Shown: piece after piece, positions 7,760 to 59,474 of the stretch
Layout of the letters: the number at the start of each line of letters is the position of its first letter
Numbering within the stretch: the first letter of the stretch is position 1
DNA from: a virus
Lineage: Duplodnaviria > Caudoviricetes
IMG/VR virus record: IMGVR_UViG_3300020171_000028
Span: 1-62,374 of that record
Reading direction: 5' to 3' (one strand)
Length of the DNA: 62,374 nucleotides
Program-made: the position numbers and the translations under genes
Notes under the pieces: model-generated
The model's database searches: none
What the model was told of the DNA's origin: nothing
Seen by the model: only the letters and a program-made list of their open reading frames with translations

Positions 7760-8080
7760 TCAACCCCCTAAAGAAAGAAACCAAGTCATTAAAACTCCTC
7801 CGGCGCAAGTAGCAAGTAAATCCAACTTATCAAATTTTCGTCCTTGTATTTTATCTAAAACTTCTTTTTGTATACCTAAAAATACAGCAAAACTTAATCC
7901 AAACACCAAAGAAACTCCGTAACAAGGGATTCCTGCTAGTCCTAAAACTAACTGAGAATACAAGAATCCTAAAAAAGCAGCCACTCCCCCGATAACAAAA
8001 TGAAATACTTTATCATGTGCTAGTAAATAAGCATAGATAATCCCCCACAATTCAATTAACTTTTCTTTTAACTTTTTCAT
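7760..8080 (-). CDS. Membrane protein (DK..H…KE..D…D..DL.A motif family)
   Basis: Three TM segments; HDKVFHF, KEVLD, DKLDLLAT. Confidence 0.6.
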   Translation of the reverse strand: MKKLKEKLIELWGIIYAYLLAHDKVFHFVIGGVAAFLGFLYSQLVLGLAGIPCYGVSLVFGLSFAVFLGIQKEVLDKIQGRKFDKLDLLATCAGGVLMTWFLSLGG

Positions 8081-8093
8081 TTTTCTTTATTTT

Positions 8094-8477
8094 TTAGTTT
8101 AACAATTTATCTAACCCCAAAATCAAAGTCATCAGACTACTTAGAATTGCAACAATCCAAACAATCCTTTCCTTCCATTTACGAGGAGCATCTGCTGCGG
8201 AAAGTAATTTTTGTTGCTTTATTATTCTAACCACTTCTAATTCCTCTTTTTCTTTTCTTTTTAATCGTTCGTTCTCTAAGAATTCATTCATACTTACCTT
8301 ATCTCTAGGGCATTCTTGGTCTCGTAAAGCTTCCAAATCTTTAGAAATTACAACGATTTCTCTTTGTAATTTACTTATGTTTTCATTAGTATAACGAGAT
8401 AATCGGTCTAATCCTGTTGCCATCCTTTGGGAATCCGCAACTAGATTGTCTAGTAAACTCTGAATTTCAATCTGCAT
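8094..8477 (-). CDS. Coiled-coil protein with C-terminal TM anchor (lysis region)
   Basis: Coiled coil plus terminal hydrophobic helix. Confidence 0.6.
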   Translation of the reverse strand: MQIEIQSLLDNLVADSQRMATGLDRLSRYTNENISKLQREIVVISKDLEALRDQECPRDKVSMNEFLENERLKRKEKEELEVVRIIKQQKLLSAADAPRKWKERIVWIVAILSSLMTLILGLDKLLN

Positions 8478-8928
8478 CTTTTTTAAGTATTACTGAAAAC
8501 CCCAGAATTCCTAGTACCTCTCCTTTTTCATTCTTTATAGGAAATTTGTCAGTTCTCAAAGTTATGTTAGTGTCAAATAGTTTTTCAATTCTACCTAATA
8601 AAGGTTCCCCTTTTAAAAAGACTTTCAAATCATTTTGGGCATACTTACTTGCTTGTATTTTATTTTCCATCAACTCCAATACATTCTTTCCTTGAAAGTC
8701 ATTTTTTTCTCCTCCTAAAACATCACAGAAATATTGATTGACCCTTATAATGTTATTTTCCTTATCTTTGAAAAACAATAGAGCTTCTATGTTATCCCAT
8801 ACAGTTTCTAATAAAGTAACATAGGAAGAGTACGACTGAATACTCCTCCTTGTCTTTGCTAAAGACTGTTGAATAGAATGAATCTCATCTCTTAAATCAC
8901 ATACTTCAAAGTCTTCTTTTCCCATCAC
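8467..8928 (-). CDS. Stand-alone PAS-domain protein
   Basis: WDNIEALLFFKDKENNIIRVNQYFC…GKNVLEL…DLKVFLKGEP…KFPIKNEKGEVLGILGFS matches the PAS_4/PAC pattern. Confidence 0.8.
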   Translation of the reverse strand: MMGKEDFEVCDLRDEIHSIQQSLAKTRRSIQSYSSYVTLLETVWDNIEALLFFKDKENNIIRVNQYFCDVLGGEKNDFQGKNVLELMENKIQASKYAQNDLKVFLKGEPLLGRIEKLFDTNITLRTDKFPIKNEKGEVLGILGFSVILKKDAD

Positions 8929-31012: not shown

Positions 31013-32875
31013 CTAATTATCGTCTATCATCCCTTTTATCCAAGTAGAAGGGACAGAATCAAAAATCTGAACCCCTTGCTTACTTATCTCTACTATTCCG
31101 TCATTCTTCCAGCTTTTCGGAACATTGAATACAAAAACATCCCCTGCTTTAAATCCTTCTTTTACCCCAGCAGTATATATTGCAGATGTATTTGCCCAAA
31201 CGCTTCCAGATATCTCAGCATCCAATCCTTTTTTTCCTATAGAAGCAATATTCTTTGCATTAGTTTCATGAAAATAAGTAACTCCACCTCCTTCTGGCCC
31301 TACATAATTGGGATTCTTGTAATAAGGCATAGTTTTTCCTCCTATATTAATAGAAGATTGCTCCCACCCTTCCGGGCCTCTTCCAGCACCACCTCCCCCA
31401 GGACGAATAGTCCTATGTCCTTTTATTCCACTACCTTTACCTCCTAACACTTCAACCATAGAAGCAACTTCTAATAAATCCTCTTCTTCCGGTTCTATTT
31501 CTTCCTCTTCTTCCGGTTCTATTCTAGGCTCTTCTAAAATAGCTTGCTCTCTCATCTCTTCAATGATACTTATCTGGTCAGGAGTCAATCCTACAAAGTA
31601 TTCAAGGAACGCAGCCGGTGGAATAGTGGCTTCCGCCATAGGAGAATCGGCATACGCTTTCAACGCCTCTGTACGAGTTTTACCAATATCCACCCTTTCT
31701 TTTTCTGACATCGCAAATAAATCAGCCCATTTGATTGAATACTCTTCTTTAGGTGCCGGAAGCACTTTCATTTCGACGCATTTATCTACAAAAGGCCTGA
31801 TGATGGTCAATTCTGCGTATTCCTCTCTTCTTGATTGTATATATGTTTTCCACTCGTCTGAATCTTGAGAACTGGATAATTCTCCTCTTTCACTCCCTAT
31901 CAAAATTCTTTTAGGAATTCCAGTTGCTGCGGATATCATTTGTATTTGAATATCTACGTGGTTTAAGGGGTCTGCTACCTGTTGTGCCAAAGACTCAAAA
32001 GAAACTCCTTGATTGACTAACATCCGGCGTAGGTTGTGCTCGTATTCATCTATTTGATTACGTAACTCCTCTTCTCCTACAGTATCGATATTGTAATCCT
32101 TGTCTACTTTACCTACGTACCCCGGACGAGCCCCTTTCCAAAACATTTCGGCATCCCCACCTACTATCTTTTCTAAATCCATCAAGCGATTGAATACGTT
32201 TTTCAACCTCGGGGTACCTATTACTTCGTTCTCCAACATGTCTTCTACTATATGAAGAACCCTTGAATAATGCACTTGGATGGATTTAGTTGCTCCTTTA
32301 TCAGATTCCTCTACTTCTAACCGGTACATAAAAGGAAGCCCGTATCTTTTATTGGTAGTGTCACTAACATAACTTTCTATTTGCGCAGATTTTTCACTCA
32401 AAGGCTTCAAATACATTAGTTTTGCGCCTACAGAAAGAGGATTCTTCCATTCCTCTTCCGTTTTTACATCAGACATTCCAAACAACAGTACTCCGTATTG
32501 GCCTATTCCAGTAAGCTTATCTAAACGAGAAAAAACGGATTTCAATTTAAGATTCTTTTGTAAAAGACTCCATGCCTTCTCCAAAGGAGTTTCCATGTCA
32601 TCGTCTGCCTCTACAACATCTAAAGGTCCTTGCCAAGTAGCCTTGACCGGTCTATCTATAAGAGCTTTTGCAATGTCTTGCCGGTCGTATCTAACAAAAT
32701 AATCATCAAAGGTTAATTCCAATGGATAACCTAATGCTTCGTATATATGTCTATCTCCGTCAAAACTTTGCTGATTTAAGCGGGATGCCAAACCAGCCCG
32801 GTTGGCTATGGTTGATAAGACAAGTAATCTTTTCTCCAAAGCCTCTATACTGGAAGATGTTTTCGTTCTTTCCAT
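31013..32875 (-). CDS. Portal protein (DUF1073-like) with C-terminal extension
   Basis: Position after TerL; YDRQDIAKALID, VHYSRVLH, ISAATGIPKRIL.G. Confidence 0.88.
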   Translation of the reverse strand: MERTKTSSSIEALEKRLLVLSTIANRAGLASRLNQQSFDGDRHIYEALGYPLELTFDDYFVRYDRQDIAKALIDRPVKATWQGPLDVVEADDDMETPLEKAWSLLQKNLKLKSVFSRLDKLTGIGQYGVLLFGMSDVKTEEEWKNPLSVGAKLMYLKPLSEKSAQIESYVSDTTNKRYGLPFMYRLEVEESDKGATKSIQVHYSRVLHIVEDMLENEVIGTPRLKNVFNRLMDLEKIVGGDAEMFWKGARPGYVGKVDKDYNIDTVGEEELRNQIDEYEHNLRRMLVNQGVSFESLAQQVADPLNHVDIQIQMISAATGIPKRILIGSERGELSSSQDSDEWKTYIQSRREEYAELTIIRPFVDKCVEMKVLPAPKEEYSIKWADLFAMSEKERVDIGKTRTEALKAYADSPMAEATIPPAAFLEYFVGLTPDQISIIEEMREQAILEEPRIEPEEEEEIEPEEEDLLEVASMVEVLGGKGSGIKGHRTIRPGGGGAGRGPEGWEQSSINIGGKTMPYYKNPNYVGPEGGGVTYFHETNAKNIASIGKKGLDAEISGSVWANTSAIYTAGVKEGFKAGDVFVFNVPKSWKNDGIVEISKQGVQIFDSVPSTWIKGMIDDN

Positions 32876-33079
32876 TTATTCTTGTATTTCTTTATCTAAA
32901 ACAAACATAGGTATTACTTTTGCTCCAAAACATACATTACAGGGAACCAACCCAGCTTTAATAGAACCGCCTGTATTTTCTCCAAAGTATTTCTGAACAA
33001 ATACTTCCCCATCCCCATTGCACTTTGGGCACAATTGATATGGAATAGCTTTTACTATTTTTACTTCTATTGCTTCCAT
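32876..33079 (-). CDS. Small DnaJ-type zinc-finger protein
   Basis: CPKCNGDG and CNVCFGAK; likely start MEAIE. Confidence 0.65.
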   Translation of the reverse strand: MEAIEVKIVKAIPYQLCPKCNGDGEVFVQKYFGENTGGSIKAGLVPCNVCFGAKVIPMFVLDKEIQE

Positions 33080-38938: not shown

Positions 38939-39812
38939 TATTCCTTACAAAACAGAAGGACATAAACACTGTCGGGAAGGGTGGGTAAATACTCAATGCC
39001 CCTTCTGTACAGGAAATTATGGATGGCATCTTAGTTATAACATTCAGGATAACTACTACGCCTGTTGGAGGTGTGGAGGTAAGTCTACTGTTATGGTAGT
39101 TTCTAAGCTTTTGAAAATTACTATTCCTTCCGCTTACTCTATTATCAAGAAATACGGCATGGTTTCCTATATGACCAAACCGACCAATACAAAAATAAAG
39201 CTTAGAAAGAAATCTTTCCGGTTGCCTTCCAACACAGATTCTTTATCTCAAATACATAAGAATTATTTAGAGGAGAGAGGGTTTGAAGTTGAAAAATTAG
39301 AAAAAGAATGGAATCTGTTAGGAACCGGTGTTTTCAGTAAATTAGAAGACATCTCCTACAAAAATAGAATCATCATTCCTTTTGAATGGAATGGAGAAAT
39401 GGTTAGTTTCGATTCAAGAGACATCACCAACAAAGCAACTAATAAGTATATGGCTTGCCCTAAAGATAGAGAAATTATAGAACATAAAACTATACTATAC
39501 GGCAACCAAAAGAAATGGAGTGATGTGGGTATATGTGTAGAAGGACCTACGGATGTTTGGAGGTTGGGTCCTTCTGCTTTTGCTCTCTCCGGAATAAAGT
39601 ATACTAGAAAACAAGTCAGAGAAATTAGAAAAGCATTTAAACGAGTGATTATCTTATTTGATGATGACCCTCAAGCAATCATTCAATCACATAAACTTAT
39701 GGTGGATTTACAATTAACTGGGGTGGAAGCCTCCGAAATAAATATCAAAGGAGACCCTGGAAGTATGTCTCAAGAAGAAGCAAATTACTTAGTAAAACAA
39801 ATAATTAGATAA
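38907..39812 (+). CDS. DNA primase (Zn finger + TOPRIM)
   Basis: CPFC…H…CWRCG, RIIIP, VEGPTD, FDDD, DPG. Confidence 0.88.
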   Translation: MDVVSLYQDFSIPYKTEGHKHCREGWVNTQCPFCTGNYGWHLSYNIQDNYYACWRCGGKSTVMVVSKLLKITIPSAYSIIKKYGMVSYMTKPTNTKIKLRKKSFRLPSNTDSLSQIHKNYLEERGFEVEKLEKEWNLLGTGVFSKLEDISYKNRIIIPFEWNGEMVSFDSRDITNKATNKYMACPKDREIIEHKTILYGNQKKWSDVGICVEGPTDVWRLGPSAFALSGIKYTRKQVREIRKAFKRVIILFDDDPQAIIQSHKLMVDLQLTGVEASEINIKGDPGSMSQEEANYLVKQIIR

Positions 39813-39815: not shown

Positions 39816-40613
39816 ATGGCTGAAGGGAAAAAATCTTTCTTACTTTATACAGATTTACTTTACACAGTAGAACAACTTCCAGATGATATGGCAGGGAAAC
39901 TTTTTAAACATATTTTAGAATACGTTAATGACAAGAATCCCGAAACTGATGATTTAGTACTTAAAGTATCTTTCGAACCTATTAAACAACAATTGAAAAG
40001 GGATTTGAAAAAATTTGAAAACATCTGTGAGCAAAGAAGTGATTCAGGGACATTAGGAAATCTTAAACGGTGGAATGAGGATTTGTTTACTCAAGTAACG
40101 AAAAAACAAATATCACTCAAAGAAGCCTTAGAAATCGCAAACAATCGCAAAAATCGCAAACGCGATAAAATTATCGCAAAAATCGCTGATAATGATAATG
40201 ATAATGATAATGATATAATAAAAAAAAATAAACAAAAAAAAGTGATTGGGATATCTTTAGAGGATAAGAATAAAGAATATTTTCCATTAGCTAAACAACT
40301 ATCCAAAATTGTAAAAGAAAATAAAAACATATCTATCCAGTTACATGTAGTCAAGAATTGGAGCAATGATATTCGATTACTAACAGAAACTTCCAACATA
40401 GATATTCCTAGGATAGAAAAGGTCTTAGATTGGTATTCCAAAAATATAGGGAAAGAATACATCCCAATCATTCTATCTGGTAATGCCTTACGGACAAAAT
40501 TCTTAGCTTTGGAAAGTGCGATGGAAAGGAATGAAAAGAAAACAACTCCAGTGTCTCCTGTAAGATTTAAAAGTAGAACCCAAAGTTATAGAGACCCAGA
40601 TGAAATAATTTAA
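39816..40613 (+). CDS. Replication initiator-like protein with N-terminal DUF6291
   Basis: KKSFLLYTD…EQLPDDMAGKLFKHILEY; internal DNDNDND linker and iterons. Confidence 0.75.
   Translation: MAEGKKSFLLYTDLLYTVEQLPDDMAGKLFKHILEYVNDKNPETDDLVLKVSFEPIKQQLKRDLKKFENICEQRSDSGTLGNLKRWNEDLFTQVTKKQISLKEALEIANNRKNRKRDKIIAKIADNDNDNDNDIIKKNKQKKVIGISLEDKNKEYFPLAKQLSKIVKENKNISIQLHVVKNWSNDIRLLTETSNIDIPRIEKVLDWYSKNIGKEYIPIILSGNALRTKFLALESAMERNEKKTTPVSPVRFKSRTQSYRDPDEII
40132..40215 (+). repeat. Iteron-like ATCGC(AAA) repeats plus (TGATAA)n; probable replication origin
   Basis: aatcgcaaacaatcgcaaaaatcgcaaacgcgataaaattatcgcaaaaatcgctgataatgataatgataatgataatgata, followed by an A-rich tract. Confidence 0.7.
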
Positions 40614-40630: not shown

Positions 40631-41179
40631 ATGAAAACAAATTACAGAAAAATCGAGTTTGGAGCTGGTGATAGTATTGAAAGAGCAATGAATGATTTAG
40701 CACGTTTTAAAGAACGTGGCGAATTGGTTTATGGTGAGTTTAACGAGCAAAAATTATACTCAGACATTGACGACATTGATTCAGCTTATCAGAAAATTAC
40801 AGGCAAAACAAAGGCTGAATTTGACGAAGCAAGGCAAAAAGAACATGAAGAATATGAAGCTGAAAAGAAAAGGCACGAACAAGCTATTCCCGAATTAACA
40901 AAACAATGGATCGAAAAAGGGAACTTAATACTTGATGAAAAACATCACGAATTATGGGCTAAAATAGTTCCTGTTAGGCTTAAAGATTTATACAAAGGCT
41001 TTGAATTAGGGGCTTGCCTTGACATAGTGAGAGAGCTTAATGCAGGGTGTGTGTTTGAAAAAGTGAAAACTACAATTGAAGGACAAGGGCACTCTGGAAT
41101 GTCTTTCGCTTTAGTTTGCTCAATGGTAAAATCGTTCTGTGATAGAGGTGCTGAATTTGTAAATTACGCACGTTCTTAG
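40631..41179 (+). CDS. Hypothetical protein (distal cassette ORF 0, no upstream site visible)
   Basis: Ends tctTAG 11 nt before the AAC of site 1, like the other cassettes. Confidence 0.8.
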   Translation: MKTNYRKIEFGAGDSIERAMNDLARFKERGELVYGEFNEQKLYSDIDDIDSAYQKITGKTKAEFDEARQKEHEEYEAEKKRHEQAIPELTKQWIEKGNLILDEKHHELWAKIVPVRLKDLYKGFELGACLDIVRELNAGCVFEKVKTTIEGQGHSGMSFALVCSMVKSFCDRGAEFVNYARS

Positions 41180-41189
41180 TATGAACGCT

Positions 41190-41313
41190 AACGGACGGCA
41201 ATATGAAAAGTGCTGGATTACGAAGCACGGAATTGTCAAACTGCTGCGAACTTTGAAACGAGAACAAATATTTAATAACAGCACGAAACCCAGCATGTTT
41301 TATATTGCGTGTT
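41190..41313. repeat. attC-like site 1 (124 bp)
   Basis: AACG…gcaatatgaaaagtgctgg / ccagcatgttttatattgc…TGTT. Confidence 0.85.
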
Positions 41314-41340
41314 GTGCGTAGTGCTTTAATAATCAAAACA

Positions 41341-41751
41341 ATGACAAAAGAAGAAAAATTATCATTTTATTTGCCTTACAATATTAAAGGGCAATACAGA
41401 TTAGGTGATGTTGTTGAAAATGCACCTAACCCTGATGAAATTAGAGAAAAAACACTAACCACAGAAAATGCAGATTTTTTCTTTAAATTTTGTAAACCGA
41501 TATTAAGACCGATTGAAGATGCAATGACATTGAAAATTGATTTTGATGGAGAAGAAGATTTTTTTCACAATAATTTTTTTGGCTTTACAAATTTTAAAGC
41601 ATATTGGAAGGAATACGAAAGTTATGGAATGGCATATTGGCACAATAGAGCACCTTTTGTTGTTACTAAAAGATTACTTGAATATCATTTTGATGTTTTT
41701 GATATGATTAGATATGGATTGGCAACTTCAATGCACGATGCTGTCTCTTAG
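41341..41751 (+). CDS. Cassette 1 hypothetical protein
   Basis: Flanked by gttgtgcgtagtgct (41311) and agcattacgcacaac (41750). Confidence 0.8.
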   Translation: MTKEEKLSFYLPYNIKGQYRLGDVVENAPNPDEIREKTLTTENADFFFKFCKPILRPIEDAMTLKIDFDGEEDFFHNNFFGFTNFKAYWKEYESYGMAYWHNRAPFVVTKRLLEYHFDVFDMIRYGLATSMHDAVS

Positions 41752-41761
41752 CATTACGCAC

Positions 41762-41882
41762 AACGTCCGCAGGTATGTTGTCGTTGCGTGAATTTAGTAT
41801 AAACTTAAAAATAGAACAAATGAAAAATTTAGTAAGAAACTTATTTAGAGGTAGGAAGCAGCAATGCAATATATCTGATGTT
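41762..41882. repeat. attC-like site 2 (121 bp)
   Basis: caggtatgttgtcgttgc / gcaatgcaatatatctg with bulged T. Confidence 0.85.
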
Positions 41883-42035
41883 AGCGGTTCGTTGACACCT
41901 TTCGGAGAATCAATAAAACTGTTAAGAGATTTAGCTGACTTACAAAATGGCGCACCACTTGAACAGCATAGACAAGAGTGGGAAGAAACAATGGAACAGG
42001 TTTATGACTTCCTTAATAGGTGGGAAAGTCAATGA
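41820..42035 (+). CDS. Cassette 2 hypothetical protein (starts inside site 2)
   Basis: MKNLVRNLFRGRKQQCNISDVSGS…; IR gttagcggttcgttgac / gtcaatgaccgctaac. Confidence 0.7.
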   Translation: MKNLVRNLFRGRKQQCNISDVSGSLTPFGESIKLLRDLADLQNGAPLEQHRQEWEETMEQVYDFLNRWESQ

Positions 42036-42040
42036 CCGCT

Positions 42041-42129
42041 AACGGTGGCGATTGGCGAAGTAAAAGCCCTGCACTACCGTTTATGTTTAGCACTACACTT
42101 AATGGCTTTTATTTTGCCAATTGCGTGTT
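42041..42129. repeat. attC-like site 3 (89 bp)
   Basis: gcgattggcgaagtaaaagcc / ggcttttattttgccaattgc. Confidence 0.88.
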
Positions 42130-42178
42130 AGCGGATGCCCTTTTTCGAATTATTAATTAACAATTTAAAATAACAAAA

Positions 42179-42646
42179 ATGATACAAAAATTTAAAAAGA
42201 AACCTGTTGAGATTGAAGCAATACAATACACAGGTAAAAATGATTTTGAAATTGGTAAATGGTCAAATGATTTAGTTTACCCAAGCCCCGTTTTAGAGCC
42301 AAGTGAAAACAACCCAAGCGGTAGTTATTTGCAGATTAAAACACTTGAAGGCGTAATGACTGCAATAGTTGGCGATTGGATTATAAAAGGTGTTAAAGGC
42401 GAGTTTTACCCTTGCAAAAACGATATATTCTTAATGACTTATGATGTTGTAATTCCAAAAGATGTATTGGATGCTCAAAAATTCATACAAGAATGTGGTC
42501 GAGATATGGGATTTATGGGTTCACCTGAATATGACAGACAAAAGAAAATTGTTGATGCTTATTTTGAGCCTATTAAACAGAAAGAAAAAGAAGATTTAGA
42601 AATGGCTGAATACCTAAAACTCAAATCGAAGTACGAGGGTTCTTAG
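42179..42646 (+). CDS. Cassette 3: common phage protein of KKPVEIEA…GDWIIKGVKGEFYPCK family
   Basis: Motif; IR gttagcggatgccct / agggtttccgctaac. Confidence 0.82.
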   Translation: MIQKFKKKPVEIEAIQYTGKNDFEIGKWSNDLVYPSPVLEPSENNPSGSYLQIKTLEGVMTAIVGDWIIKGVKGEFYPCKNDIFLMTYDVVIPKDVLDAQKFIQECGRDMGFMGSPEYDRQKKIVDAYFEPIKQKEKEDLEMAEYLKLKSKYEGS

Positions 42647-42656
42647 GGTTTCCGCT

Positions 42657-42779
42657 AACGTTAAAATGTATGGTGTCGTGGCTGCCATAAACAAAGCCAC
42701 ATAGTTTAAAAACTTAATAATTTTAAATATGAAAAACGAACTTTCAAAAAACGAGCAGCCATGCACTATACATAGTGTT
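42657..42779. repeat. attC-like site 4 (123 bp)
   Basis: atgtatggtgtcgtggctgc / gcagccatgcactatacat with bulged T. Confidence 0.88.
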
Positions 42780-42947
42780 ATAGCCCGTTTATTAGTTTTA
42801 TTCTTTGCATTGCTAATGTTTACAATGTTTAGAACAGTATTGGACACTGGATGGGCTATTTATTGGGATGCTTTATGTGCAATTGGATGGGCTGGAAACT
42901 TATTGTGGATAAAGCCATTGTCGAAGTCTTTTTTTAATGGGCTATAA
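42729..42947 (+). CDS. Cassette 4 small membrane protein (starts inside site 4)
   Basis: Two TM; IR gttatagcccg / tgggctataac; stop TAA is within TAAC. Confidence 0.72.
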   Translation: MKNELSKNEQPCTIHSVIARLLVLFFALLMFTMFRTVLDTGWAIYWDALCAIGWAGNLLWIKPLSKSFFNGL

Positions 42948-43069
42948 CGTTCAAGTATTGCCGAAGGTGGGGCGTAAAAGTGCTACCGCTTTACCTAAGC
43001 ACAAAAGTTTAATAGTAGCACTAATGTTGAATTTGGGATGGTCTGCCCCACTTTTGGCAATACATTGTT
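42946..43069. repeat. attC-like site 5 (124 bp)
   Basis: gtattgccgaaggtggggc / gccccacttttggcaatac. Confidence 0.88.
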
Positions 43070-43091
43070 AGCAGCCGTTTTTTATCACGAT

Positions 43092-43478
43092 ATGGAAAAT
43101 TTAAAAGAATACATTAAAAACTGGATTGCTATTGATGGACAAAAACCTTGTAATGAGGATTTGTTTGTCAATGAGTTTATTGATTTGATTACAAAAATTG
43201 ATGATGAAAGAGATATTTCATTTGATGGCGAAGGCTCTTATTTTGGCAAACAAATAACGCTTCATTTGAATAGTGGCGTTTGGATTGGTGACCCGTTAAT
43301 TCATTTTGAAATTGCTTATAGCCAAAATCAAATTAGGGTTTACACAGCAAATCATCACGGGTTTTGGTATCCTGAATATTTATCAATGTCAAATAAACAT
43401 CCAAGATTTGAAGAAGTAAAAAAGCCACTATTTAAACTGCTTTACAAGGTTTTTGGTCTGCCCGAAAATGGCTGCTAA
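43092..43478 (+). CDS. Cassette 5 hypothetical protein
   Basis: IR gttagcagccgtttt / aaaatggctgctaac. Confidence 0.78.
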   Translation: MENLKEYIKNWIAIDGQKPCNEDLFVNEFIDLITKIDDERDISFDGEGSYFGKQITLHLNSGVWIGDPLIHFEIAYSQNQIRVYTANHHGFWYPEYLSMSNKHPRFEEVKKPLFKLLYKVFGLPENGC

Positions 43479-43597
43479 CGGTGGCAATAAGAAACGAAAG
43501 GGATTTGAAACCGCTTCTTTATCTACCGTTACAAGCCTTGCAAATAGCTACCACGCTCGAATTACAGATAATACCCTTTTGTTTTTTATTGCGTGTT
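43477..43597. repeat. attC-like site 6 (121 bp)
   Basis: gcaataagaaacgaaaggg / cccttttgttttttattgc. Confidence 0.88.
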
Positions 43598-43622
43598 ATA
43601 AAACGTTAATATTTAAATAATT

Positions 43623-43901
43623 ATGATAAAACATGAACAAATTACAGAAGTAAAAACAATATCAAAAAGGTATTGTGATGATTGCGGAAAAGAAACACCA
43701 TATAGGCGAACTTGTAACTGCTGCGGAAAAGATATGTGTAATGATTGTGTAGGACATGAAGAAAATGATGGTGGTGATTATTCAGATTACTATTGCTTAA
43801 AATGTTGGCACTTAGGAGAACCGTATCGAGATAAAATAAATGAGTTAGAAGTTCAGATAGCAGAACTAAGTGGCGAATGGATGTCGAAGTGTCGTTCTTA
43901 A
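43623..43901 (+). CDS. Cassette 6 Cys-rich zinc-finger protein
   Basis: Four CxxC pairs; IR gttataaaacgtta / taatgttttataac. Confidence 0.78.
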   Translation: MIKHEQITEVKTISKRYCDDCGKETPYRRTCNCCGKDMCNDCVGHEENDGGDYSDYYCLKCWHLGEPYRDKINELEVQIAELSGEWMSKCRS

Positions 43902-43909
43902 TGTTTTAT

Positions 43910-44033
43910 AACGTACTGCAGCCTTACGCAGTGGGGGCTTTTAACCACTGCACTAACTTAAAAGCACAAAATTATGAGTAACGAAAAATTGTCCAACGAA
44001 GCACAGAACCCCCCATTGAGTAAGGGTGTTGTT
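43910..44033. repeat. attC-like site 7 (124 bp)
   Basis: gcagccttacgcagtggggg / cccccattgagtaagggtgt. Confidence 0.82.
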
Positions 44034-44180
44034 ATGCCCCGTTTATTTGCTATTACAGCACAAGAAGGGTGGAATGAAATGTTTTGGGATAAAGAAAAAG
44101 CCCAACACAAAATTGATACACAATACAAAAAAGATTTTCCGAATGATGAATTTTGGGTTGAAGAAGTTAATGTCTCTTAA
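43974..44180 (+). CDS. Cassette 7 hypothetical protein (starts inside site 7)
   Basis: MSNEKLSNEAQNPPLSKGVVMPR…; terminal IRs do not match. Confidence 0.7.
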   Translation: MSNEKLSNEAQNPPLSKGVVMPRLFAITAQEGWNEMFWDKEKAQHKIDTQYKKDFPNDEFWVEEVNVS

Positions 44181-44189
44181 ATGCACCCT

Positions 44190-44315
44190 AACGGTCAGGC
44201 GGTTGGCGTTCGTTGCCGACTTTGGAACACGAAATTGTAAATTTAAAAATATAGTAAATATGAAATACGAAAGTTTGATACCAGAAAGACTCGGCAATGA
44301 CGCTAACCGCTTGTT
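44190..44315. repeat. attC-like site 8 (126 bp)
   Basis: ggcggttggcgttcgttgccga / tcggcaatgacgctaaccgct with bulged T. Confidence 0.88.
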
Positions 44316-44478
44316 ATGTGCAGGGCTTTGTCTGAATTGTAAACATCAGAGTTATAAAAGCGATAAGAACTTTGAAAAGACAGGTATTTGCATAGTGAAA
44401 TTTTGGAAAGACAAGAGATGTAAATTATCACCGAATAAGCCAGTTTTGAAATGTGCGGACTTTGAGCCTTGCACATAA
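44260..44478 (+). CDS. Cassette 8 Cys-rich protein (starts inside site 8)
   Basis: MKYESLIPERLGNDANRLLCAGLCLNC…; IR gttatgtgcagggct / agccttgcacataac. Confidence 0.68.
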   Translation: MKYESLIPERLGNDANRLLCAGLCLNCKHQSYKSDKNFEKTGICIVKFWKDKRCKLSPNKPVLKCADFEPCT

Positions 44479-44563
44479 CGGCTGCAAACATGAGCAGGCG
44501 GGCAATGCTCAATAAACCCGCACATACGCAACTGTGTCAGCCCGCTTGCTTATGTTTGTTGTT
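44477..44563. repeat. attC-like site 9 (87 bp)
   Basis: gcaaacatgagcaggcgggc / gcccgcttgcttatgtttgt. Confidence 0.88.
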
Positions 44564-44589
44564 AAAGGCTGGCGTTAATACTTTGTAAA

Positions 44590-44829
44590 ATGATACACGC
44601 AAGAGCAGATTATGACAGAATCCAAGACCCAAAAGGGAAAATTGGAGAAGATGAACCCGTTTTTTTGCTGAGAGCCAAAGACAGTTTAGCTCCTGGAATT
44701 TTGATGAAGTGGGCAACTGAGTTAATTAACAGAGGTGGCGACAAAAAAATGGCGAAAATGGTAACAGACCACGCTGTTAAAATGGTAGAGTGGCAAGAAA
44801 AAAACGGGTGCAAACTTCCAGATTTGTAG
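44590..44829 (+). CDS. Cassette 9 phage protein (DEPVFLLRAKD motif)
   Basis: IR gttaaaggctggcgt / acgcttgcctttaac. Confidence 0.78.
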   Translation: MIHARADYDRIQDPKGKIGEDEPVFLLRAKDSLAPGILMKWATELINRGGDKKMAKMVTDHAVKMVEWQEKNGCKLPDL

Positions 44830-44870
44830 AATGTTTCAGGTGAGCGTAGGGCTTTCTTACGCTTGCCTTT

Positions 44871-44991
44871 AACGGTTTGGCTAAGAATAGGCAGGGAAAA
44901 GAGCTTTACCCTTTCAGCCTACACGAATGATAAAACAAAACTCACAGGCTTAATTTGCAGACTTCGCCCCTGCTTATTATTAGCCTTTGTT
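44871..44991. repeat. attC-like site 10 (121 bp)
   Basis: ggctaagaataggcaggg / ccctgcttattattagcc. Confidence 0.86.
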
Positions 44992-45015
44992 ATAGGGCGT
45001 TTATAATTTAAGATT

Positions 45016-45441
45016 ATGAATACGGAATTTAAAAGAAAAGTATCTGAATTATTTCTAAAAAGGATTGACACGACTTATTTAAAAGGGTCTTGTGGAGAAC
45101 TTGGCGAATCTGTTAAAACTATTGATTATGATTATTTAAACGACCTTGTTAATGAAATAAGTGAGATTGTTAGCGATAATTTTGAACCAAAAAAATGTAT
45201 GCCTGATGGAATTAATTCTAAAGAGGAACACGATGAATATTTAAAAGCTATTGGGTATGAAAAATACGTGAAGGAATTAGAACACTTCAAAGATAGTCAC
45301 ATTGGACTTTATGTAATTGATAAAATGATTGATGACATCTTTACAGACACTCCATTAGAAAAAGACTGTAAAACAGTTGTCGAAGCTTATTTGGTTCAAC
45401 AATTTAAGCGATTAAAGTCTTTAATGTGGCGGATTTCTTAA
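45016..45441 (+). CDS. Cassette 10 hypothetical protein (integrase-proximal)
   Basis: IR gttatagggcgttt / aaatgccctataac. Confidence 0.78.
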   Translation: MNTEFKRKVSELFLKRIDTTYLKGSCGELGESVKTIDYDYLNDLVNEISEIVSDNFEPKKCMPDGINSKEEHDEYLKAIGYEKYVKELEHFKDSHIGLYVIDKMIDDIFTDTPLEKDCKTVVEAYLVQQFKRLKSLMWRIS

Positions 45442-45489
45442 ATGCCCTATAACATATAAATATATTTAACTTACTTTAACCTATTGATT
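45440..45489 (-). other. Putative attI-like primary insertion site
   Basis: Last AAC (45451-45453) is followed by A rather than G and by no stem-loop, and abuts the recombinase start. Confidence 0.55.
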
Positions 45490-46296
45490 ATGAATAAAGA
45501 TTATGGTAAAATTTTAAACATTTGCATTCAAAAGTTTAAATATTTAAATTACTCAGAAAACACTAGCAATATTTATGCTCATTATATCAAAGAATTCTTA
45601 GTAAAAACAGATAAATATATAGAGCATATAGTTTCAAATGACATGAATGCGTATTTAACAATGTATCGATTTTCCTCTATTTCTCAACAAAATCAAATTA
45701 TTAGTGCTTTAGCTTTTCTTTATAAGAAAGTATTAAATAAAAAATACGATAAAGTAGAATTCACAAGACCCATACGAGAAAAGAAACTTCCTAAAATAAT
45801 AGATAAAACGTACTTAATTAATAAAATATTGCGCATAAAGAATCTTAAACATAAAGCAATTTTAGCATTAGCATATTCTACAGGATTAAGAGTATCTGAA
45901 GTCATTAATTTAAAAATAAACGATATAGATTCAAAAAGAATGATAGTAAAAATAAATCAATCAAAAGGAAATAAAGATAGAATAGTACCATTAACAAACG
46001 ATTTGCTTAAAATACTTCGAGAATATTATTTAGAACATAAACCAAAAGAATTTTTATTTAATGGGCAGAAATCTTTAAAATATTCAGCAGGAAGTTGTAA
46101 TCAGTTAGTTAAGAGACATATAGGAAGCGAGTATCATTTTCATTTACTTAGACATTCTTGTTTCACTCATTTGACTGATCAAGGGGTTGATATTCGAGTT
46201 ATACAGAAACTAGCTGGGCATTCAAATCCTAATACGACTGCGATTTATGCTCAAGTAAGTACTAGTATTTTACATAGATTACCATTAGGAATTTAA
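45490..46296 (+). CDS. Tyrosine recombinase, integron-integrase-like N-terminal SAM domain, no IntI-specific insertion
   Basis: NYSENTSNIY; catalytic R (GLRVSE), K (KGNKDR), HxxR (HLLRH), H (LAGH), Y (TTAIY). Confidence 0.92.
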   Translation: MNKDYGKILNICIQKFKYLNYSENTSNIYAHYIKEFLVKTDKYIEHIVSNDMNAYLTMYRFSSISQQNQIISALAFLYKKVLNKKYDKVEFTRPIREKKLPKIIDKTYLINKILRIKNLKHKAILALAYSTGLRVSEVINLKINDIDSKRMIVKINQSKGNKDRIVPLTNDLLKILREYYLEHKPKEFLFNGQKSLKYSAGSCNQLVKRHIGSEYHFHLLRHSCFTHLTDQGVDIRVIQKLAGHSNPNTTAIYAQVSTSILHRLPLGI

Positions 46297-46613: not shown

Positions 46614-46916
46614 ATGGAATTTATTGTTATTATGTTAATCAGTTTAATCGGATTAATGATTGTCTATGTACAGTACTTAGAATTACGACAAAAACATTTT
46701 GTTAAAACAGTAAAAAGAGGAGACCCTTGTCTATTTTATTTGAATGGTAAGGTACGAGAAGGAATTGTTTTGATGTATGTGAAAGAAAACATTTACTCTC
46801 ATGTACAAGATAATTATGGAAATATCCATAGAGTATTTACTGAGGATATCACTCCTCCAAAATTATGGAAATGCGAAAAGAAGAAATCTGGAGGAAAAGG
46901 ATTCTCCCAAAACTAA
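46614..46916 (+). CDS. Membrane-anchored hypothetical protein
   Basis: N-terminal TM. Confidence 0.6.
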   Translation: MEFIVIMLISLIGLMIVYVQYLELRQKHFVKTVKRGDPCLFYLNGKVREGIVLMYVKENIYSHVQDNYGNIHRVFTEDITPPKLWKCEKKKSGGKGFSQN

Positions 46917-47425
46917 TAAAAAGATTTACTCCTCGAATACAACAAGACTTACTTAAAATTGAATGGCCTGCAAATTTACCAAATGAAATTTCCAATCTGT
47001 ATCTATACGGGGAAACAGAGGTTGGAAAAACTATTTATGCGGCATTTCTTTGCTTACATGCTAGTAAATTAAAGTATTTAACAGAAGATATTTCCGGAAA
47101 AGATTTTCTTTTTGTTTCTTTTCCGGAATTGTTTATGGAGATAAAAGAAACTTTTGAAGATAAAACAAAATCTGAAGTAACTGTTTTAAACAAATACCGA
47201 GAAGTGGATTTACTTGTATTAGATGATTTCGGGGTTAAGAATAGTAGCGATTGGTTTATAGAAGTGCTTTATGTTATTATCAATTATCGATATGAGCAAC
47301 AAAAAACCACCGTATTCACTAGCAATTATTCTTTACAAGAAATGGCTTCCTTGTTAGGGGATGATAGAATTTCCTCTAGGATTGAACGGATGTGTCGAAT
47401 TATGTTAAAGAAAACTTGGAAATGA
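46865..47425 (+). CDS. DnaC/IstB-like AAA+ helicase loader
   Basis: GETEVGKT, LLVLDDFG, IINYRY, TVFTSN, DRISSRI. Confidence 0.88.
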   Translation: MEMRKEEIWRKRILPKLIKRFTPRIQQDLLKIEWPANLPNEISNLYLYGETEVGKTIYAAFLCLHASKLKYLTEDISGKDFLFVSFPELFMEIKETFEDKTKSEVTVLNKYREVDLLVLDDFGVKNSSDWFIEVLYVIINYRYEQQKTTVFTSNYSLQEMASLLGDDRISSRIERMCRIMLKKTWK

Positions 47426-55875: not shown

Positions 55876-56883
55876 ATGAAGATAACTAAAATAGAATTAT
55901 TAACTGCCTTAGAAGCTGTAAAGGCTGGATTGGCGAATAAAGAATTAATAGAGCAAACTACTTCTTTTGCTTTTATAAAAGGCAAAGTGATTACTTACAA
56001 CGATGAAATCAGCTTTTCACATCCATTGAAAGGATTAAATATTGAAGGGGCCGTACAAGCAGAACAATTGTATAAGTTACTTGCTAAACTTAAAAAAGAA
56101 GAAATAGACTTTACTTTAACTGAAAACGAAATCTTGATTCAAAATGGAAAGATGACAGCTGGATTAGCTTTACAAAAAGAAATAACTTTACCTTTAAATG
56201 AACTTAAAGAAAAGAAAGATTGGTATCCTATCCCTTCTAAATTGTTAAAGCATATGAAACTTACCGTAGGTGCTTGTTCAAGAGATATGAGCCGTCCTGT
56301 ATTAACTTGTATTAATATAGATAAAAAAGGATATGTACAAGGCTCCGACGGCTTTCGTATCGCACAAGGTGTGTTAGGAGAAGAATCTCCAATAGATACT
56401 TTTCTTTTACCAGCCTCCTCTGCTTTAGAAGTAGAAAAATTAGCTCCTATAGAAATGGCACAAAGTGTCGGATGGGTTCATTTCCGCGCAGCAGAAGGAA
56501 CTATTTTATCTTGCCGTATCTTGACTGATAAATTTCCAGATGTACAACCATACTTAGTTTCGAAAGGAATAGAAATAAAATTTCCTTCTTCTATACTAGA
56601 AATTTTGGAACGTGCTGCTGTTTTTTCTAAAAGAGACCATTTACTTGATGAAGAAATTTATATTACTTTAGAAAATAACCGATTATTACTGGAAAGCAAA
56701 TCCAATACAGGATGGTTCAAAGAAGAAGTAAATTGTAAATTCTCTGAAGAAAAAACACAATTCAAAATCACTCCGTATCTTCTAAAGGATGTTTTAACAG
56801 AAGCAAGGCAATGTCTTATGAATGAAAAAACATTATTATTTCAAGGAGAAGATTGGAGTTACTTAACTATGTTAAGAAAGTAG
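55876..56883 (+). CDS. DNA sliding clamp (Pol III beta-like)
   Basis: 335 aa; SRPVLTCINI, GSDGFRIA, KFPDV, LERAAVFS. Confidence 0.82.
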   Translation: MKITKIELLTALEAVKAGLANKELIEQTTSFAFIKGKVITYNDEISFSHPLKGLNIEGAVQAEQLYKLLAKLKKEEIDFTLTENEILIQNGKMTAGLALQKEITLPLNELKEKKDWYPIPSKLLKHMKLTVGACSRDMSRPVLTCINIDKKGYVQGSDGFRIAQGVLGEESPIDTFLLPASSALEVEKLAPIEMAQSVGWVHFRAAEGTILSCRILTDKFPDVQPYLVSKGIEIKFPSSILEILERAAVFSKRDHLLDEEIYITLENNRLLLESKSNTGWFKEEVNCKFSEEKTQFKITPYLLKDVLTEARQCLMNEKTLLFQGEDWSYLTMLRK

Positions 56884-56885
56884 TT

Positions 56886-59474
56886 ATGGAAGGATTCTTT
56901 ACAAAGAAACAAACAGAATCAAAAACTCGTCCTGATGGAAAAGTACATAGTTGCTTTTCCTGTGGATTACTTACGCTTTGTAAAAGCCCTAAGATGTCTC
57001 CAACAGGAAACTTTAAACTTGGTATTTTAAATATTGGAGAAGCGCCTGATACTACCGATGACCGGTTAGGTCTTCCTTTCCGATCCAAAGCTGGACGATA
57101 CTTACAAAAAATGTATAGACAAGTAGGTATAGATTTAGAAGAAGATTGTTTAAATGTAAATGCCATTAAATGCTCCCCGCAAACTAAGGAAGGAAAAAAC
57201 AGAAAACCTACGAACTATGAAATCGATTGTTGTAGAAAATACGTTTTAGAAGTCATAGAAAAATACAACCCGAAAGTAATTGTATTGTTTGGGGCGTCTC
57301 CTTTGTATAGCGTACTAAAAGGACATTACAGTAAAGATTTAGGAGACATCCATAAATGGCAAGGGTGGACTATCCCTGACCAGAAATACAAGGCTTGGCT
57401 TCTTCCTGTGTATGCTCCTGATTTTATTCTTCACCAAGAAAGTCAAGAATCAGAAGTAGTTTGGTTACAAAGTTTAAAGCAAGTAAAAATAAAAGCAAGA
57501 GAGGAATTTCCTATTTATGAAGAACCTAAAATTGAAATCATAGAAGACTTATCTGTTTTAGAAACTATTAAAAGTTCTGAAATTGCTTTTGACTATGAAA
57601 CTACCGGATTGAAGCCACATGCTCCTGAGCACCGAATTGTTTGTGCGGCAGTAGCTCATTCTGAAAATCACGCCTATGTTTTTCGAATGCCTAGAAAAAA
57701 GTCAGAAAGAACCCCTTTCATAAATTTATTGCAAGACCCTGTAATTAAGAAGATGGCACACAATATGAAATTTGAAGACCATTGGACTAATGTAAAATTA
57801 AAAACAGAAATTACAAATTGGTATTGGGATAGTATGTTAGTTGCTCATGTTTTAGACAATCGACCAGGAATCACTGGATTAAAATTTCAAACCTACATAA
57901 ATTTCGGAATTGCTGACTATGATAGTGAAATCAGTCCTTATCTTAAATCTGAGGGAAATAATGATAATGCAGTAAATAACATATTCAAAGCTATCGAAAA
58001 CGGGTATGAAGAAAAATTACTTAAATACTGCGCCTTAGACGCAATTTATCAGTACCGCTTATATAAGTATCAAGAAAAACAAATAAGGAGCGTACAACGG
58101 CTCTACGATGCTTATATGCTAATGCACAACGGTATTCTTGCTATCGCCAAAGCAGAAAGACAAGGATTTCGTATAGATGTAGAATATATACAAAAGAAAA
58201 AAGAATTCTTATCTCGCAAAATCGAGAAAATCGAAACCCAGTTTAAAGAATCTGATTTGTATAAAGAATGGCAAAAACATTCCAAAGGACAAGTTAATAT
58301 CAATTCTGGAAAACAATTAGGAGATTTCTTGTACGGAATTAAGAAATTGAAACCTACAAAAACCACTACCTCCGGATTAGGTAGCACAGATGAGGAGGCT
58401 TTGTTATCCCTAAATCTTCCGGAATTAACTAGATTACTAGAAACTAAGAAATTAAAGAAAATCCGAGATACTTATTTAGATGCTTTCGACCGAGAGCAAG
58501 TAAATGGAATAATCCATCCTTTTTTCAATCTTCATTTAGTACAAACTTACCGGTCTAGTTCTAACAGCCCTAACTTCCAGAATATTCCTAAACGAGACAA
58601 AGAAGCAATGAAAGCGGTTAGGAAAGCAATTTATCCAAGACCGGGACATCAATTACTCGAAGTAGATTTTAGTGGTATAGAAGTTAGAATTGCTGCTTGC
58701 TACCACAAAGACCCTACTATGTTAAAATATATAAATGACCCTACTACCGACATGCATAGGGATATGGCAGAACAAATTTTCAAAATTAATAATTTTAACA
58801 AAGCTCTTCCAGAGCATTCATATTTAAGAAGCGCAGCGAAAAATGGTTTTGTATTCCCTCAATTCTATGGCGATTATTATAAGAATTGTGCTGAAAATTT
58901 AGCTATTAGATGGGGAGGATTATCTGAAGGGAAATGGAAAGCAGGACAAGGTGTAGTGTTTGAAGGAAAAAATTTAGCAGACCATTTACTTAAACAAGGT
59001 ATTCGTTCTTTAGAACAATTCACTGAGCATATCCGTCTTATAGAAAATGATTTTTGGAGTAACAGATTTCCTAAGTATTCTTGGTGGAAAGATGCTACTT
59101 ATGCAACTTATAAGAAATATGGATACTTTACTTTGAAAACTGGATTCGATTGTAAAGGAATCATGCGTAAAAACGAAGTTATAAACTATCCTGTACAAGG
59201 CGCGGCTTTCCATTGTTTACTGTGGTCATTTACTGAGATGGTAAATGCCTTAGAAAAGAAATGTATGGATTCCAAAGTAATAGGACAAATACATGATTCC
59301 ATTGTTTTAGATGTACATCCAGAAGAATTGGAAGAAGTGAAGAAACTGCTCCGCTACATTACAACAATAGCTTTACCAAAACATTGGGATTGGATTATTG
59401 TGCCGATGGATATTGATGCGGAAATAAGTCCTGTGGATGGTAGTTGGGCGGATAAACAAGATTGTAAGATTTGA
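56886..59474 (+). CDS. Family A DNA polymerase with N-terminal family-4 uracil-DNA-glycosylase-like domain
   Basis: CFSC…C, IGEAP, NAIKC; exonuclease DYETTG, HNMKFE, YCALDA; polymerase NFQNIP, DFSGIEVR, AKNGFVFPQFYG, NYPVQG, QIHDS. Confidence 0.93.
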   Translation: MEGFFTKKQTESKTRPDGKVHSCFSCGLLTLCKSPKMSPTGNFKLGILNIGEAPDTTDDRLGLPFRSKAGRYLQKMYRQVGIDLEEDCLNVNAIKCSPQTKEGKNRKPTNYEIDCCRKYVLEVIEKYNPKVIVLFGASPLYSVLKGHYSKDLGDIHKWQGWTIPDQKYKAWLLPVYAPDFILHQESQESEVVWLQSLKQVKIKAREEFPIYEEPKIEIIEDLSVLETIKSSEIAFDYETTGLKPHAPEHRIVCAAVAHSENHAYVFRMPRKKSERTPFINLLQDPVIKKMAHNMKFEDHWTNVKLKTEITNWYWDSMLVAHVLDNRPGITGLKFQTYINFGIADYDSEISPYLKSEGNNDNAVNNIFKAIENGYEEKLLKYCALDAIYQYRLYKYQEKQIRSVQRLYDAYMLMHNGILAIAKAERQGFRIDVEYIQKKKEFLSRKIEKIETQFKESDLYKEWQKHSKGQVNINSGKQLGDFLYGIKKLKPTKTTTSGLGSTDEEALLSLNLPELTRLLETKKLKKIRDTYLDAFDREQVNGIIHPFFNLHLVQTYRSSSNSPNFQNIPKRDKEAMKAVRKAIYPRPGHQLLEVDFSGIEVRIAACYHKDPTMLKYINDPTTDMHRDMAEQIFKINNFNKALPEHSYLRSAAKNGFVFPQFYGDYYKNCAENLAIRWGGLSEGKWKAGQGVVFEGKNLADHLLKQGIRSLEQFTEHIRLIENDFWSNRFPKYSWWKDATYATYKKYGYFTLKTGFDCKGIMRKNEVINYPVQGAAFHCLLWSFTEMVNALEKKCMDSKVIGQIHDSIVLDVHPEELEEVKKLLRYITTIALPKHWDWIIVPMDIDAEISPVDGSWADKQDCKI

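Follow-up and report, generated by a model that had tools for sequence, protein, structure and literature searches.

A probable integron analogue in a phage genome: an array of hairpin-bounded gene cassettes beside a Xer-like tyrosine recombinase gene

Introduction

Integrons are regarded as bacterial, and lately also archaeal, devices that are defined by the integrase IntI. The integron elements reported from phages so far are presented, in the available excerpts of a survey of phage genomes, as fragments borrowed from bacteria (PMC9892861). The question raised by the locus studied here, an array of small open reading frames (ORFs) and hairpin-forming sites directly upstream of a tyrosine recombinase gene in the IMG/VR virus record IMGVR_UViG_3300020171_000028, is whether a phage can have a cassette system with a recombinase of its own. 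The whole record of 62,374 nt (completeness estimate 90%) was analysed and is called the window below. A preliminary description, made from the letters of the window alone, had proposed that this phage captures and shuffles accessory genes by integron-like recombination, and comparison with related phages supports that proposal through breakpoints at the triplet AAC and through the linkage of such arrays to the recombinase gene. The locus is very probably a phage-encoded integron analogue that consists of a platform with a Xer-like recombinase gene, an attI-like site and ten mobile cassettes.

Results

Layout of the array and its hairpin sites

Eleven small ORFs, all on the + strand, occupy positions 40631-45441 of the window and are split by ten AAC…GTT hairpin sites; all ten boundaries were found again where the preliminary description had placed them. 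The start AACG and the end TGTT are invariant (10/10 sites), the arms are imperfectly complementary and unique to each site, and the loop is variable, which bears out the common architecture claimed earlier. The two length classes that had been noticed are also real, with eight sites of 121-126 nt and two (sites 3 and 9) of 87-89 nt. A misparse as the origin of the short class is ruled out, since sites 3 and 9 measure 89 and 87 nt. Nine of the ten cassettes have the matching ends that had been described, namely GTT followed by a word X at one end and the reverse complement of X (X') followed by AAC at the other, with an X unique to each cassette; the exception is the pair of ends from 44031 to 44192. 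An eleventh AAC (45451-45453) stands 3' of the last cassette without a hairpin, and the ATG of the recombinase gene follows 36 nt further on. The features are listed here, each site beginning with its AAC (aa, amino acids).

40631-41192, + strand: left-edge ORF, 182 aa; cassette-type end (stop codon, then ATG-N6-AAC), no hairpin 5' of the ORF, no Pfam family
41190-41764, + strand: cassette 1; site 41190-41313 (124 nt); ORF 41341-41751 (136 aa), phrog_10841, function unknown
41762-42043, + strand: cassette 2; site 41762-41882 (121 nt), the weakest fold; ORF 41820-42035 (71 aa), starting in the loop, no family
42041-42659, + strand: cassette 3; short site 42041-42129 (89 nt); ORF 42179-42646 (155 aa), phrog_419 and others, function unknown
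42657-42948, + strand: cassette 4; site 42657-42779 (123 nt); ORF 42729-42947 (72 aa), starting in the loop
42946-43479, + strand: cassette 5; site 42946-43069 (124 nt), DNA fold z = -4.43; ORF 43092-43478 (128 aa); an in-frame ATG at 43038 lies inside the site
43477-43912, + strand: cassette 6; site 43477-43597 (121 nt); ORF 43623-43901 (92 aa), weak zinc-ribbon match below the cut-off
43910-44192, + strand: cassette 7; site 43910-44033 (124 nt); ORF 43974-44180 (68 aa), starting in the loop; the sole cassette with non-matching ends
44190-44479, + strand: cassette 8; site 44190-44315 (126 nt); ORF 44260-44478 (72 aa), starting in the loop
44477-44873, + strand: cassette 9; short site 44477-44563 (87 nt); ORF 44590-44829 (79 aa)
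44871-45453, + strand: cassette 10; site 44871-44991 (121 nt); ORF 45016-45441 (141 aa); ends with X'-AAC at 45451-45453
45451-45489, + strand: candidate attI-like junction; last AAC and an A/T-rich stretch without a hairpin, 36 nt 5' of the recombinase ATG; reads ATATAAATATA
45490-46296, + strand: predicted Xer-like tyrosine recombinase, 268 aa, without the IntI-specific insert

In four sites (41762, 42657, 43910 and 44190) the ATG of the next ORF lies inside the hairpin loop, so that the 3' arm of these four cassettes is translated. Additionally, six of the eleven array ORFs (ends 41179, 41751, 42646, 43901, 44180 and 45441) finish with a serine codon and a stop, TCT-TAA or TCT-TAG, before the motif ATG-N6-AAC, which indicates that the conserved site extends into the last codons.

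Sites were sought with a scanner based on arm alignment that required AAC, paired arms, GTT and a length of 70-150 nt. On the + strand of the 62,374-nt window it found exactly the ten known sites and none in the remaining 56 kb, on the - strand it found nine of the same places with lower scores, and a total of 2 hits came from both strands of five shuffled versions of the window. A stricter scan, in which AAC and GTT had to be paired in the minimum-energy fold, found almost nothing in loci L001-L004 and would also miss most of the window's sites. When DNA energy parameters were used, the + strand folded better than the - strand in nine of the ten sites. The fold z-scores of single sites are modest (-1.9 to -4.4, site 2 apart), so the case rests on shared architecture and on comparison and not on fold energy. 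A MAFFT alignment of the ten sites lost the structural register beyond the ends, and RNAalifold returned only 14 pairs with -0.36 kcal/mol.

Cassette movement in related phages

Comparison of related phages for gain, loss or reordering of cassettes at AAC gave a favourable outcome in the Freya phages, in three metagenomic lineages and in contigs of one metagenome run (X5). The Polaribacter phages Freya_1 to Freya_10 carry a recombinase 34% identical to that of the window. Their records range in length from 43,978 to 48,920 nt, the compared flanks are 99.7-100% identical, and the differences found all lie within the array upstream of the gene annotated as 'integrase'. When Freya_1, 5, 6, 8 and 9 were compared with Freya_10 as the reference, five junctions were found, and in each the sequence left of one AAC is fused to that right of a different AAC. 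The last cassette is missing from Freya_9, those lying between two sites from Freya_8, and the full set of twelve small ORFs from Freya_1; Freya_6 has 441 nt of cassettes that are not in Freya_10. The parental left flanks at the junction share only AAC in Freya_1 and only CAAC in Freya_8. The unit lost is hairpin, GTT-X, ORF and X'-AAC, and the units lost in Freya_9 and Freya_8 indicate that each hairpin goes with the ORF that follows it. Of four Freya hairpin sites examined, three form hairpins of 124-128 nt when folded, and the arms of one resemble those of window site 4.

The circular records MT732463, MT732470 and MT732472 have their position 1 at or just after the AAC of a hairpin site. 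This suggests that the assemblies, or the authors' rotation of the records, broke at sites in these three Freya genomes.

The segments that Danklef shares with Freya_10 are 88-99.6% identical and the cassettes common to both stand in another order. In Danklef_1 (L033) the 'integrase' is truncated: it is annotated as 132 nt (8361-8492), similarity to the Freya gene begins inside it, and an ORF on the opposite strand (7973-8245) lies just upstream. Because the array is accompanied by a broken recombinase gene, Danklef_1 represents a natural recombinase-less cluster. An annotated adenine methylase in Danklef ends 43 nt 5' of a site.

Among the metagenomic lineages, loci L056-L059 have recombinase genes and junctions that are 100% identical and carry three different proximal cassettes, with divergence just before TAAC; L056 and L058 have the last cassette in common and diverge again at the next ATAAC. 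The pairs L062/L065 (recombinase genes 99.5% identical) and L111/L112 (100%) likewise have differing adjacent cassettes with breaks at (A)TAAC. An insertion site beside the integrase gene, as in attI, is thus seen by comparison, in the form of a conserved junction with differing proximal cassettes on identical platforms.

Metagenome runs were compared as contigs and not as reads, and a missing cover or joint in them is no evidence of absence. A contig of 1109 nt from X5, which belongs to another study, equals 43908-44833 of the window with one differing letter and has, before AAC, 183 nt of a different cassette end, which finishes with a stop codon and a motif of similar kind. Another X5 contig matches 45372-45453 exactly and continues with 106 nt, starting with G, that are unlike the window and stand in place of the attI-like stretch. 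Runs X3 and X4 contain the same array in fragments; small shares were also seen in the wastewater runs X6-X20. Additionally, L037 has, with a hairpin site on either side, a homologue of the window's 182-aa ORF (73% over 595 nt), and the similarity ends at AAC.

These comparisons show that cassettes are added, lost and reordered, that the break falls inside the AAC at a hairpin's 5' edge or adjacent to it, and that the AAC adjoining the recombinase gene is where new cassettes enter.

Linkage of arrays to one recombinase clade

Relatives of the recombinase are numerous: of 5495 candidates, 4620 proteins reach E <= 1e-20. The best 120 range from 59 to 66% in identity and from 263 to 284 aa in length. 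When a profile was used for scanning, IMG/VR yielded 435 relatives and the GTDB genomes 24, the latter mostly metagenome-assembled genomes of Bacteroidota plus three Flavobacteriaceae isolates. Scanning IMG/VR with the single recombinase protein instead of the profile found one relative. Eighty of the 435 IMG/VR relatives were kept, and 104 loci in all were scanned for sites. Upstream of the recombinase gene, 305 same-strand sites were found in 544,614 nt, compared with 18 downstream in 761,911 nt. Arrays in relatives reach 16 sites, and site lengths across the family peak near 86 and at 122-124 nt, the same two classes as in the window. Loci whose recombinase falls below about 45% identity (L129-L137) have no upstream arrays. 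Fifteen loci that were found through the window's helicase (213,606 nt) contain no recombinase relative and gave only 9 isolated hits at threshold level (score 32-34). In these loci, array and recombinase gene are thus present together and absent together.

Several observations were made on the scanned loci themselves. A third class of sites, about 45 nt long and near-identical in sequence, follows a terminal-looking X'-AAC in six arrays (L071, L093, L062, L111, L086 and L077); since this length is outside the 70-150 nt range of the scanner, array sizes are underestimated. Two loci, L037 (11634-17864) and L070 (17275-18644), have extra hairpin sites at a distance of 2-9 kb on the downstream side of the recombinase gene; these may be second arrays or arrays on both sides. 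Polaribacter phage P12002L (L138) has two sites of the 122-127-nt class, at 32798-32924 and 39123-39244 on the - strand, which is the gene-sense strand there, and no relative of the recombinase from this phage was among the matches in the recombinase search.

A simple Xer-like recombinase

The recombinase gene does lie directly after the array, as the preliminary description had stated, although its start is the ATG at 45490 (268 aa) and not the TTG at 45484. The catalytic set R-K-H-R-H-Y, said to be intact, is so: R134, K159/K162, H218, R221, H244 and Y253 are invariant in 23/23 aligned relatives, the naming of these residues being based on alignments to XerD, XerA and IntI4 and on the known features of the family. 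Pfam recognizes a Phage_integrase domain and a SAM-like N-terminal domain. The best NCBIfam model is of XerA type (159 bits against a cut-off of 220), the XerD and XerC models score 128 against 330 and 121 against 335, and the best match among solved structures is a XerA-like protein (1.7e-31). The IntI models score well below their cut-offs and match in two stretches each (TIGR02249, 138.1 against 265; PRK15417, 96.9 against 435). When aligned with IntI4 (2a3v), residues 10-176 of the recombinase match chain residues 9-180 and residues 213-253 match 265-305, leaving about 48 residues of the IntI4 chain between 181 and 264 without a counterpart. The IntI-specific insert lies in this skipped part of the chain. 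A test for membership of the IntI family by its specific domain gave a negative result for this protein. Judged by the model scores and the gap against IntI4, the protein is a simple tyrosine recombinase of predicted Xer-like type and not an IntI.

One alternative is that this protein is a lysogeny integrase or a resolvase of genome dimers that acts on one attP- or dif-like site, and that the array is beside it by coincidence. Databases name the relatives 'integrase' or 'XerD', and in the excerpts available of the paper on the Freya, Leef and Danklef genomes the gene is interpreted as pointing to a possible temperate lifestyle (PMC8776804). A relative 47% identical is also found in a prophage of an isolate genome, that of Mesonia aquimarina (L124). 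However, the neighbours of this prophage gene are terminase/HNH genes on one side and portal/capsid genes on the other, and the 18.7 kb examined hold phage-type genes to either side of it and no prophage end, so that the position at a prophage end typical of a temperate integrase is lacking in this one relative, which is not the phage studied here. Dimer resolution by Xer at dif involves one 28-bp duplex site, in which two inverted arms surround a centre of 6-8 bp, and no cargo, whereas the window has ten hairpin sites with cargo and a junction, and the XerC and XerD cut-offs are missed. Moreover, the variation in five lineages maps beside the gene and concerns small-gene cassettes, not host DNA, and Danklef retains its array despite the truncated recombinase gene. 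We therefore regard this explanation as extremely unlikely, while a second role of the recombinase in dimer resolution is possible.

Anatomy of the sites and the probable folding strand

Site anatomy was compared in 52 arrays with 271 sites, namely the window and the 51 loci that gave two or more upstream hits once the duplicates L078, L084, L096, L099 and L100 and the distant loci L129-L137 had been dropped. The median cassette length is 414 nt, and the ORF is co-oriented with the recombinase gene, that is, it points towards it, in 193/208 cassettes. The word X and the next X' form on average 8.0 Watson-Crick pairs of 12, and at least 10 pairs in 94/208 cassettes; at the same threshold the control pairings reached 0/204 (own upstream flank) and 3/158 (next-but-one end). 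A terminal X'-AAC was found in 40/52 arrays. In 27 arrays a conserved TATTATATATA-like run follows the terminal AAC, and the recombinase match begins 27-94 nt downstream of that AAC.

The logo of the 5' edge is A-T-K-N4-M-T-AAC-G, and that of the 3' arm has a related A-T-T…T-A-T-A followed by T-GTT-A-K-N5-G-T. These logos can be read as two copies of one putative binding box that are inverted in the folded form, the outer one made from the cassette ends and the inner one in the hairpin. A conserved T stands opposite G in both boxes, and the outer-box pair is T·G in 139/208 cassettes. In the stems, 465 pairs have G in the 5' arm and T in the 3' arm, compared with 67 T·G pairs and 116 A·C and C·A pairs, and at least one G·T pair is found in 264/271 sites. 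The T·G pairs are wobbles on the sense strand only and become C·A mismatches on the other strand. Unpaired stem letters number 100 in the 5' arms and 59 in the 3' arms of the 271 sites, with a recurrent extra T in some window sites, and the dominant asymmetry of the stems is the T·G wobble, not bulges. All ten window sites (10/10, 87-126 nt) have the form of attC sites, that is, sequence-variable imperfect palindromes of the type AAC…GTT. The length range of attC sites is roughly 57-141 nt.

The same cassette system might instead operate on duplex DNA, with the recombinase acting at the AAC junctions as XerC/D do at dif or pdif and with the hairpins as a by-product or in another role. This would suit a protein whose highest scores are against Xer models and whose best solved relative is a XerA-type protein, an attI-like junction without a hairpin, and the modest fold z-scores of single sites. 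Two known systems resemble the phage array in using a simple recombinase of Xer type: XerC/D acts on the folded single-stranded attP of CTX-type filamentous phages, and the pdif modules of Acinetobacter plasmids are discrete gene modules bounded by Xer sites. Those systems use the host's XerC/D and dif-like 28-bp sites; a dedicated recombinase gene with an array beside it is lacking in them, as are cassette-specific end words and a hairpin for each gene. As a duplex, however, the phage site has no second inverted box next to AAC, the partner box being about 85-120 nt away in the other arm; the strand asymmetry of the wobbles would be meaningless, and the complementarity of X and X' makes sense only in a folded or circular form. 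For these reasons action on duplex DNA is considered unlikely.

A further alternative is that the hairpins are RNA or regulatory elements, for processing, stabilization or translation start, that shuffling takes place by homologous or microhomology recombination as proposed for the promoter-stem-loop elements called PeSLs, and that the recombinase is irrelevant. PeSLs are described as promoter-terminator motifs that act via homologous recombination without a dedicated recombinase. They provide a precedent in T4-type phages, where short stem-loops between small accessory genes in variable regions are tied to modular shuffling, as described in the excerpts available of two papers (PMC2839356, PMC4122927). 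In a transcript with the sense-strand sequence the wobbles would fit G·U pairs, the loops of four sites carry an A/T-rich stretch along with the ATG of the next ORF, and the junctions share short conserved words such as TTGTTTACAAC. Unlike PeSLs, the phage arrays come with a recombinase and an attI-like site, and their crossover triplet is invariant. They are found almost exclusively upstream of genes of this recombinase clade, where they end in a conserved junction beside the gene, and they are absent where the recombinase is absent. The flank shared at the Freya_1 and Freya_8 junctions offers little for homology, and all the breaks are at the same triplet. The sites do not resemble intrinsic terminators: scans of the region for promoters and terminators found no excess (8 terminator-like sequences compared with 6.5 expected), and Rfam gave no matching family for the sites, only one chance snoRNA match below threshold. 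This explanation is thus very unlikely in full. An RNA role of the loops is nevertheless compatible with an integron-like array, as an addition and not as a replacement.

Discussion

Each cassette runs, in order, AAC-G, 5' arm, loop, 3' arm, T-GTT, X, small ORF and X'-AAC. In the model favoured here, the recombinase would bind both boxes of the folded sense-strand hairpin and presumably catalyse the reaction itself. The cut would fall inside the AAC that forms the hairpin's 5' edge or beside it. Strand exchange with the attI-like junction would then give integration, and exchange with a second hairpin would give excision, probably as a circle. In the excised circle X' and X would pair to form an outer (R-type) box of 12-17 bp beside the inner (L-type) box of the hairpin, so that the circle may contain two binding sites in inverted orientation, each of the form ATK-N4-ATA. 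The probable substrate is the sense strand, folded as single-stranded DNA, since each box has a conserved T·G pair that is a wobble on this strand only. As in integrons, one strand would be exchanged and the product would be resolved by replication. Because the ORFs point towards the recombinase gene, expression must come from upstream phage promoters or from within the cassettes.

Several observations weigh against this model. X and X' form fewer than 10 Watson-Crick pairs in 114/208 cassettes, which may reflect missed sites, wrong choices of GTT or decay, and 12/52 arrays gave no terminal X'-AAC. Site 2 of the window (41762-41882) folds no better than shuffles (z = 0.07), and G·U-type wobbles on the sense strand would suit RNA structure too. 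The Freya_1 and Freya_8 junctions coincide with the circular closure of the records, while the other three are internal. Four joints seen in run X2 (40327>41334, 41326>44879, 41357>41742 and 43217>46328) are off AAC, with short sides of 21-30 nt, and no circular cassette or read-level junction was seen among the contigs, the only form in which the runs were compared. The Cellulophaga phage Ingeline has a recombinase 39% identical after a run of small ORFs and no AAC…GTT hairpins that the scanner recognizes. Finally, the hairpin module of site 4 is 82% identical to one in L038, and that of site 8 is 78% identical to one in L112, in both cases with an unrelated ORF and with breaks at AAC and GTT. 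Such breaks at the GTT edge imply that crossover at a second point or on the other strand has to occur at least rarely; exchange at this edge takes place on longer time scales, perhaps via the other strand, or during cassette genesis.

The properties of integrons used for comparison are those commonly described, in part in PMC9892861. As in integrons, a tyrosine recombinase gene lies beside an insertion site and an array of promoter-poor single-gene cassettes, and the sites (here 87-126 nt) are imperfect palindromes with AAC/GTT cores that are conserved in structure and variable in sequence. The cassette ends would complete the site only in the circle, insertion takes place beside the recombinase gene, the probable folding strand carries this gene in the sense direction, the order runs from distal to proximal cassettes, then attI, then the recombinase gene, and the crossover is at the 5' AAC. 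However, there are differences. The phage recombinase is without the IntI-specific insert and below the IntI cut-offs, and the hairpin is at the 5' end of the cassette ORF whereas the integron attC is at the 3' end. The phage ORFs are on the folding strand and read towards the recombinase gene (193/208), whereas integron ORFs read away from attI, so that a promoter of the integron Pc type cannot drive them. The outer box of the phage sites is 12-17 nt long with a cassette-specific core of 4-5 nt, and conserved T·G wobbles are found where integrons have extrahelical bases, possibly beside some such bases. The carrier, moreover, is a phage. Since the test for IntI was negative and ORF orientation and hairpin position differ, the system is not filed as an integron.

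Attention has been drawn to attC sites in phages before. Qi et al. 2023 used IntegronFinder and found 17 small attC clusters (CALINs) in 10,705 phage genomes, and 5/6 of the phage sites tested were recombined by IntI1 as single strands; in the excerpts available, the clusters are read as parts of bacterial integrons carried by phages and no recombinase of the phages' own is reported (PMC9892861). Like the arrays described here, those clusters consist of attC-like sites, in virulent phages that include Polaribacter phage P12002L; the arrays differ from the clusters, as these appear in the same excerpts, in a dedicated non-IntI recombinase, an attI-like site and a large family (PMC9892861). The excerpts available of Smyshlyaev et al. 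2021 mention that a few phages carry simple Xer-like recombinases and note no cassettes (PMC8138268), and the main text of the Freya phage paper, in the form available, uses none of the terms cassette, indel and variable region (PMC8776804). No description of a phage's own recombinase with an array of hairpin cassettes was found in the open full-text literature, subscription journals being outside the scope of that search.

Taken across the relatives, the data make it fairly likely that phages of Bacteroidota have a large native family of integrons independent of IntI. In this family, cassettes of one gene each would be captured, accumulated and reshuffled by a minimal Xer-like recombinase via folded sense-strand hairpins whose boxes are marked by T·G wobbles, and turnover would be so fast that plaque isolates of one phage from a single sampling campaign differ. 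The platform is common, as the counts of relatives in IMG/VR and among proteins indicate. If this is true, the principle of capture and shuffling is not bound to IntI, and the integron principle either arose twice or is older and wider than IntI. It would also provide a concrete mechanism for the fast turnover of small accessory genes in phage genomes and would mean that hundreds of short ORFs are mobile, selected cargo and candidates for anti-defence or host takeover. Phages would then have a cassette economy of their own for accessory genes, probably for host takeover and counter-defence. A compact recombinase of 268 aa with structured single-strand sites, together with ten Freya isolates and a cultivable and harmless Polaribacter host, would offer a natural test bed.

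The cargo of the window's array consists of small accessory genes of phage type, as had been suggested: two of the ten cassette ORFs match PHROGs, both of unknown function, and none scores above a Pfam cut-off. Compared with isolate phages, the array DNA gave only short matches, to ORF 42179-42646 (155 aa). This ORF matches seven PHROGs, and hypothetical genes in phages of the unrelated hosts Clostridium, Bacillus, Streptococcus, Acinetobacter, Stenotrophomonas and Shewanella match it at the nucleotide level (75-82% identity along some 80-110 nt), which makes it a small phage gene that has travelled very widely.

The module lies between a replication protein gene (39816-40613) and a helicase loader gene (46865-47425), in agreement with the earlier placement between replication initiator and loader, and the nearest relatives of the replication protein are those of Flavobacterium phages. 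By Pfam, the window's genes include a terminase, a capsid protein, an SNF2 helicase, a primase, the DUF6291 replication protein, the IstB/DnaC-like loader, a DnaB-like helicase and a family-A polymerase. The polymerase (56853-59474, 873 aa) has an N-terminal domain of the uracil-DNA-glycosylase superfamily as well as a 3'-5' exonuclease domain.

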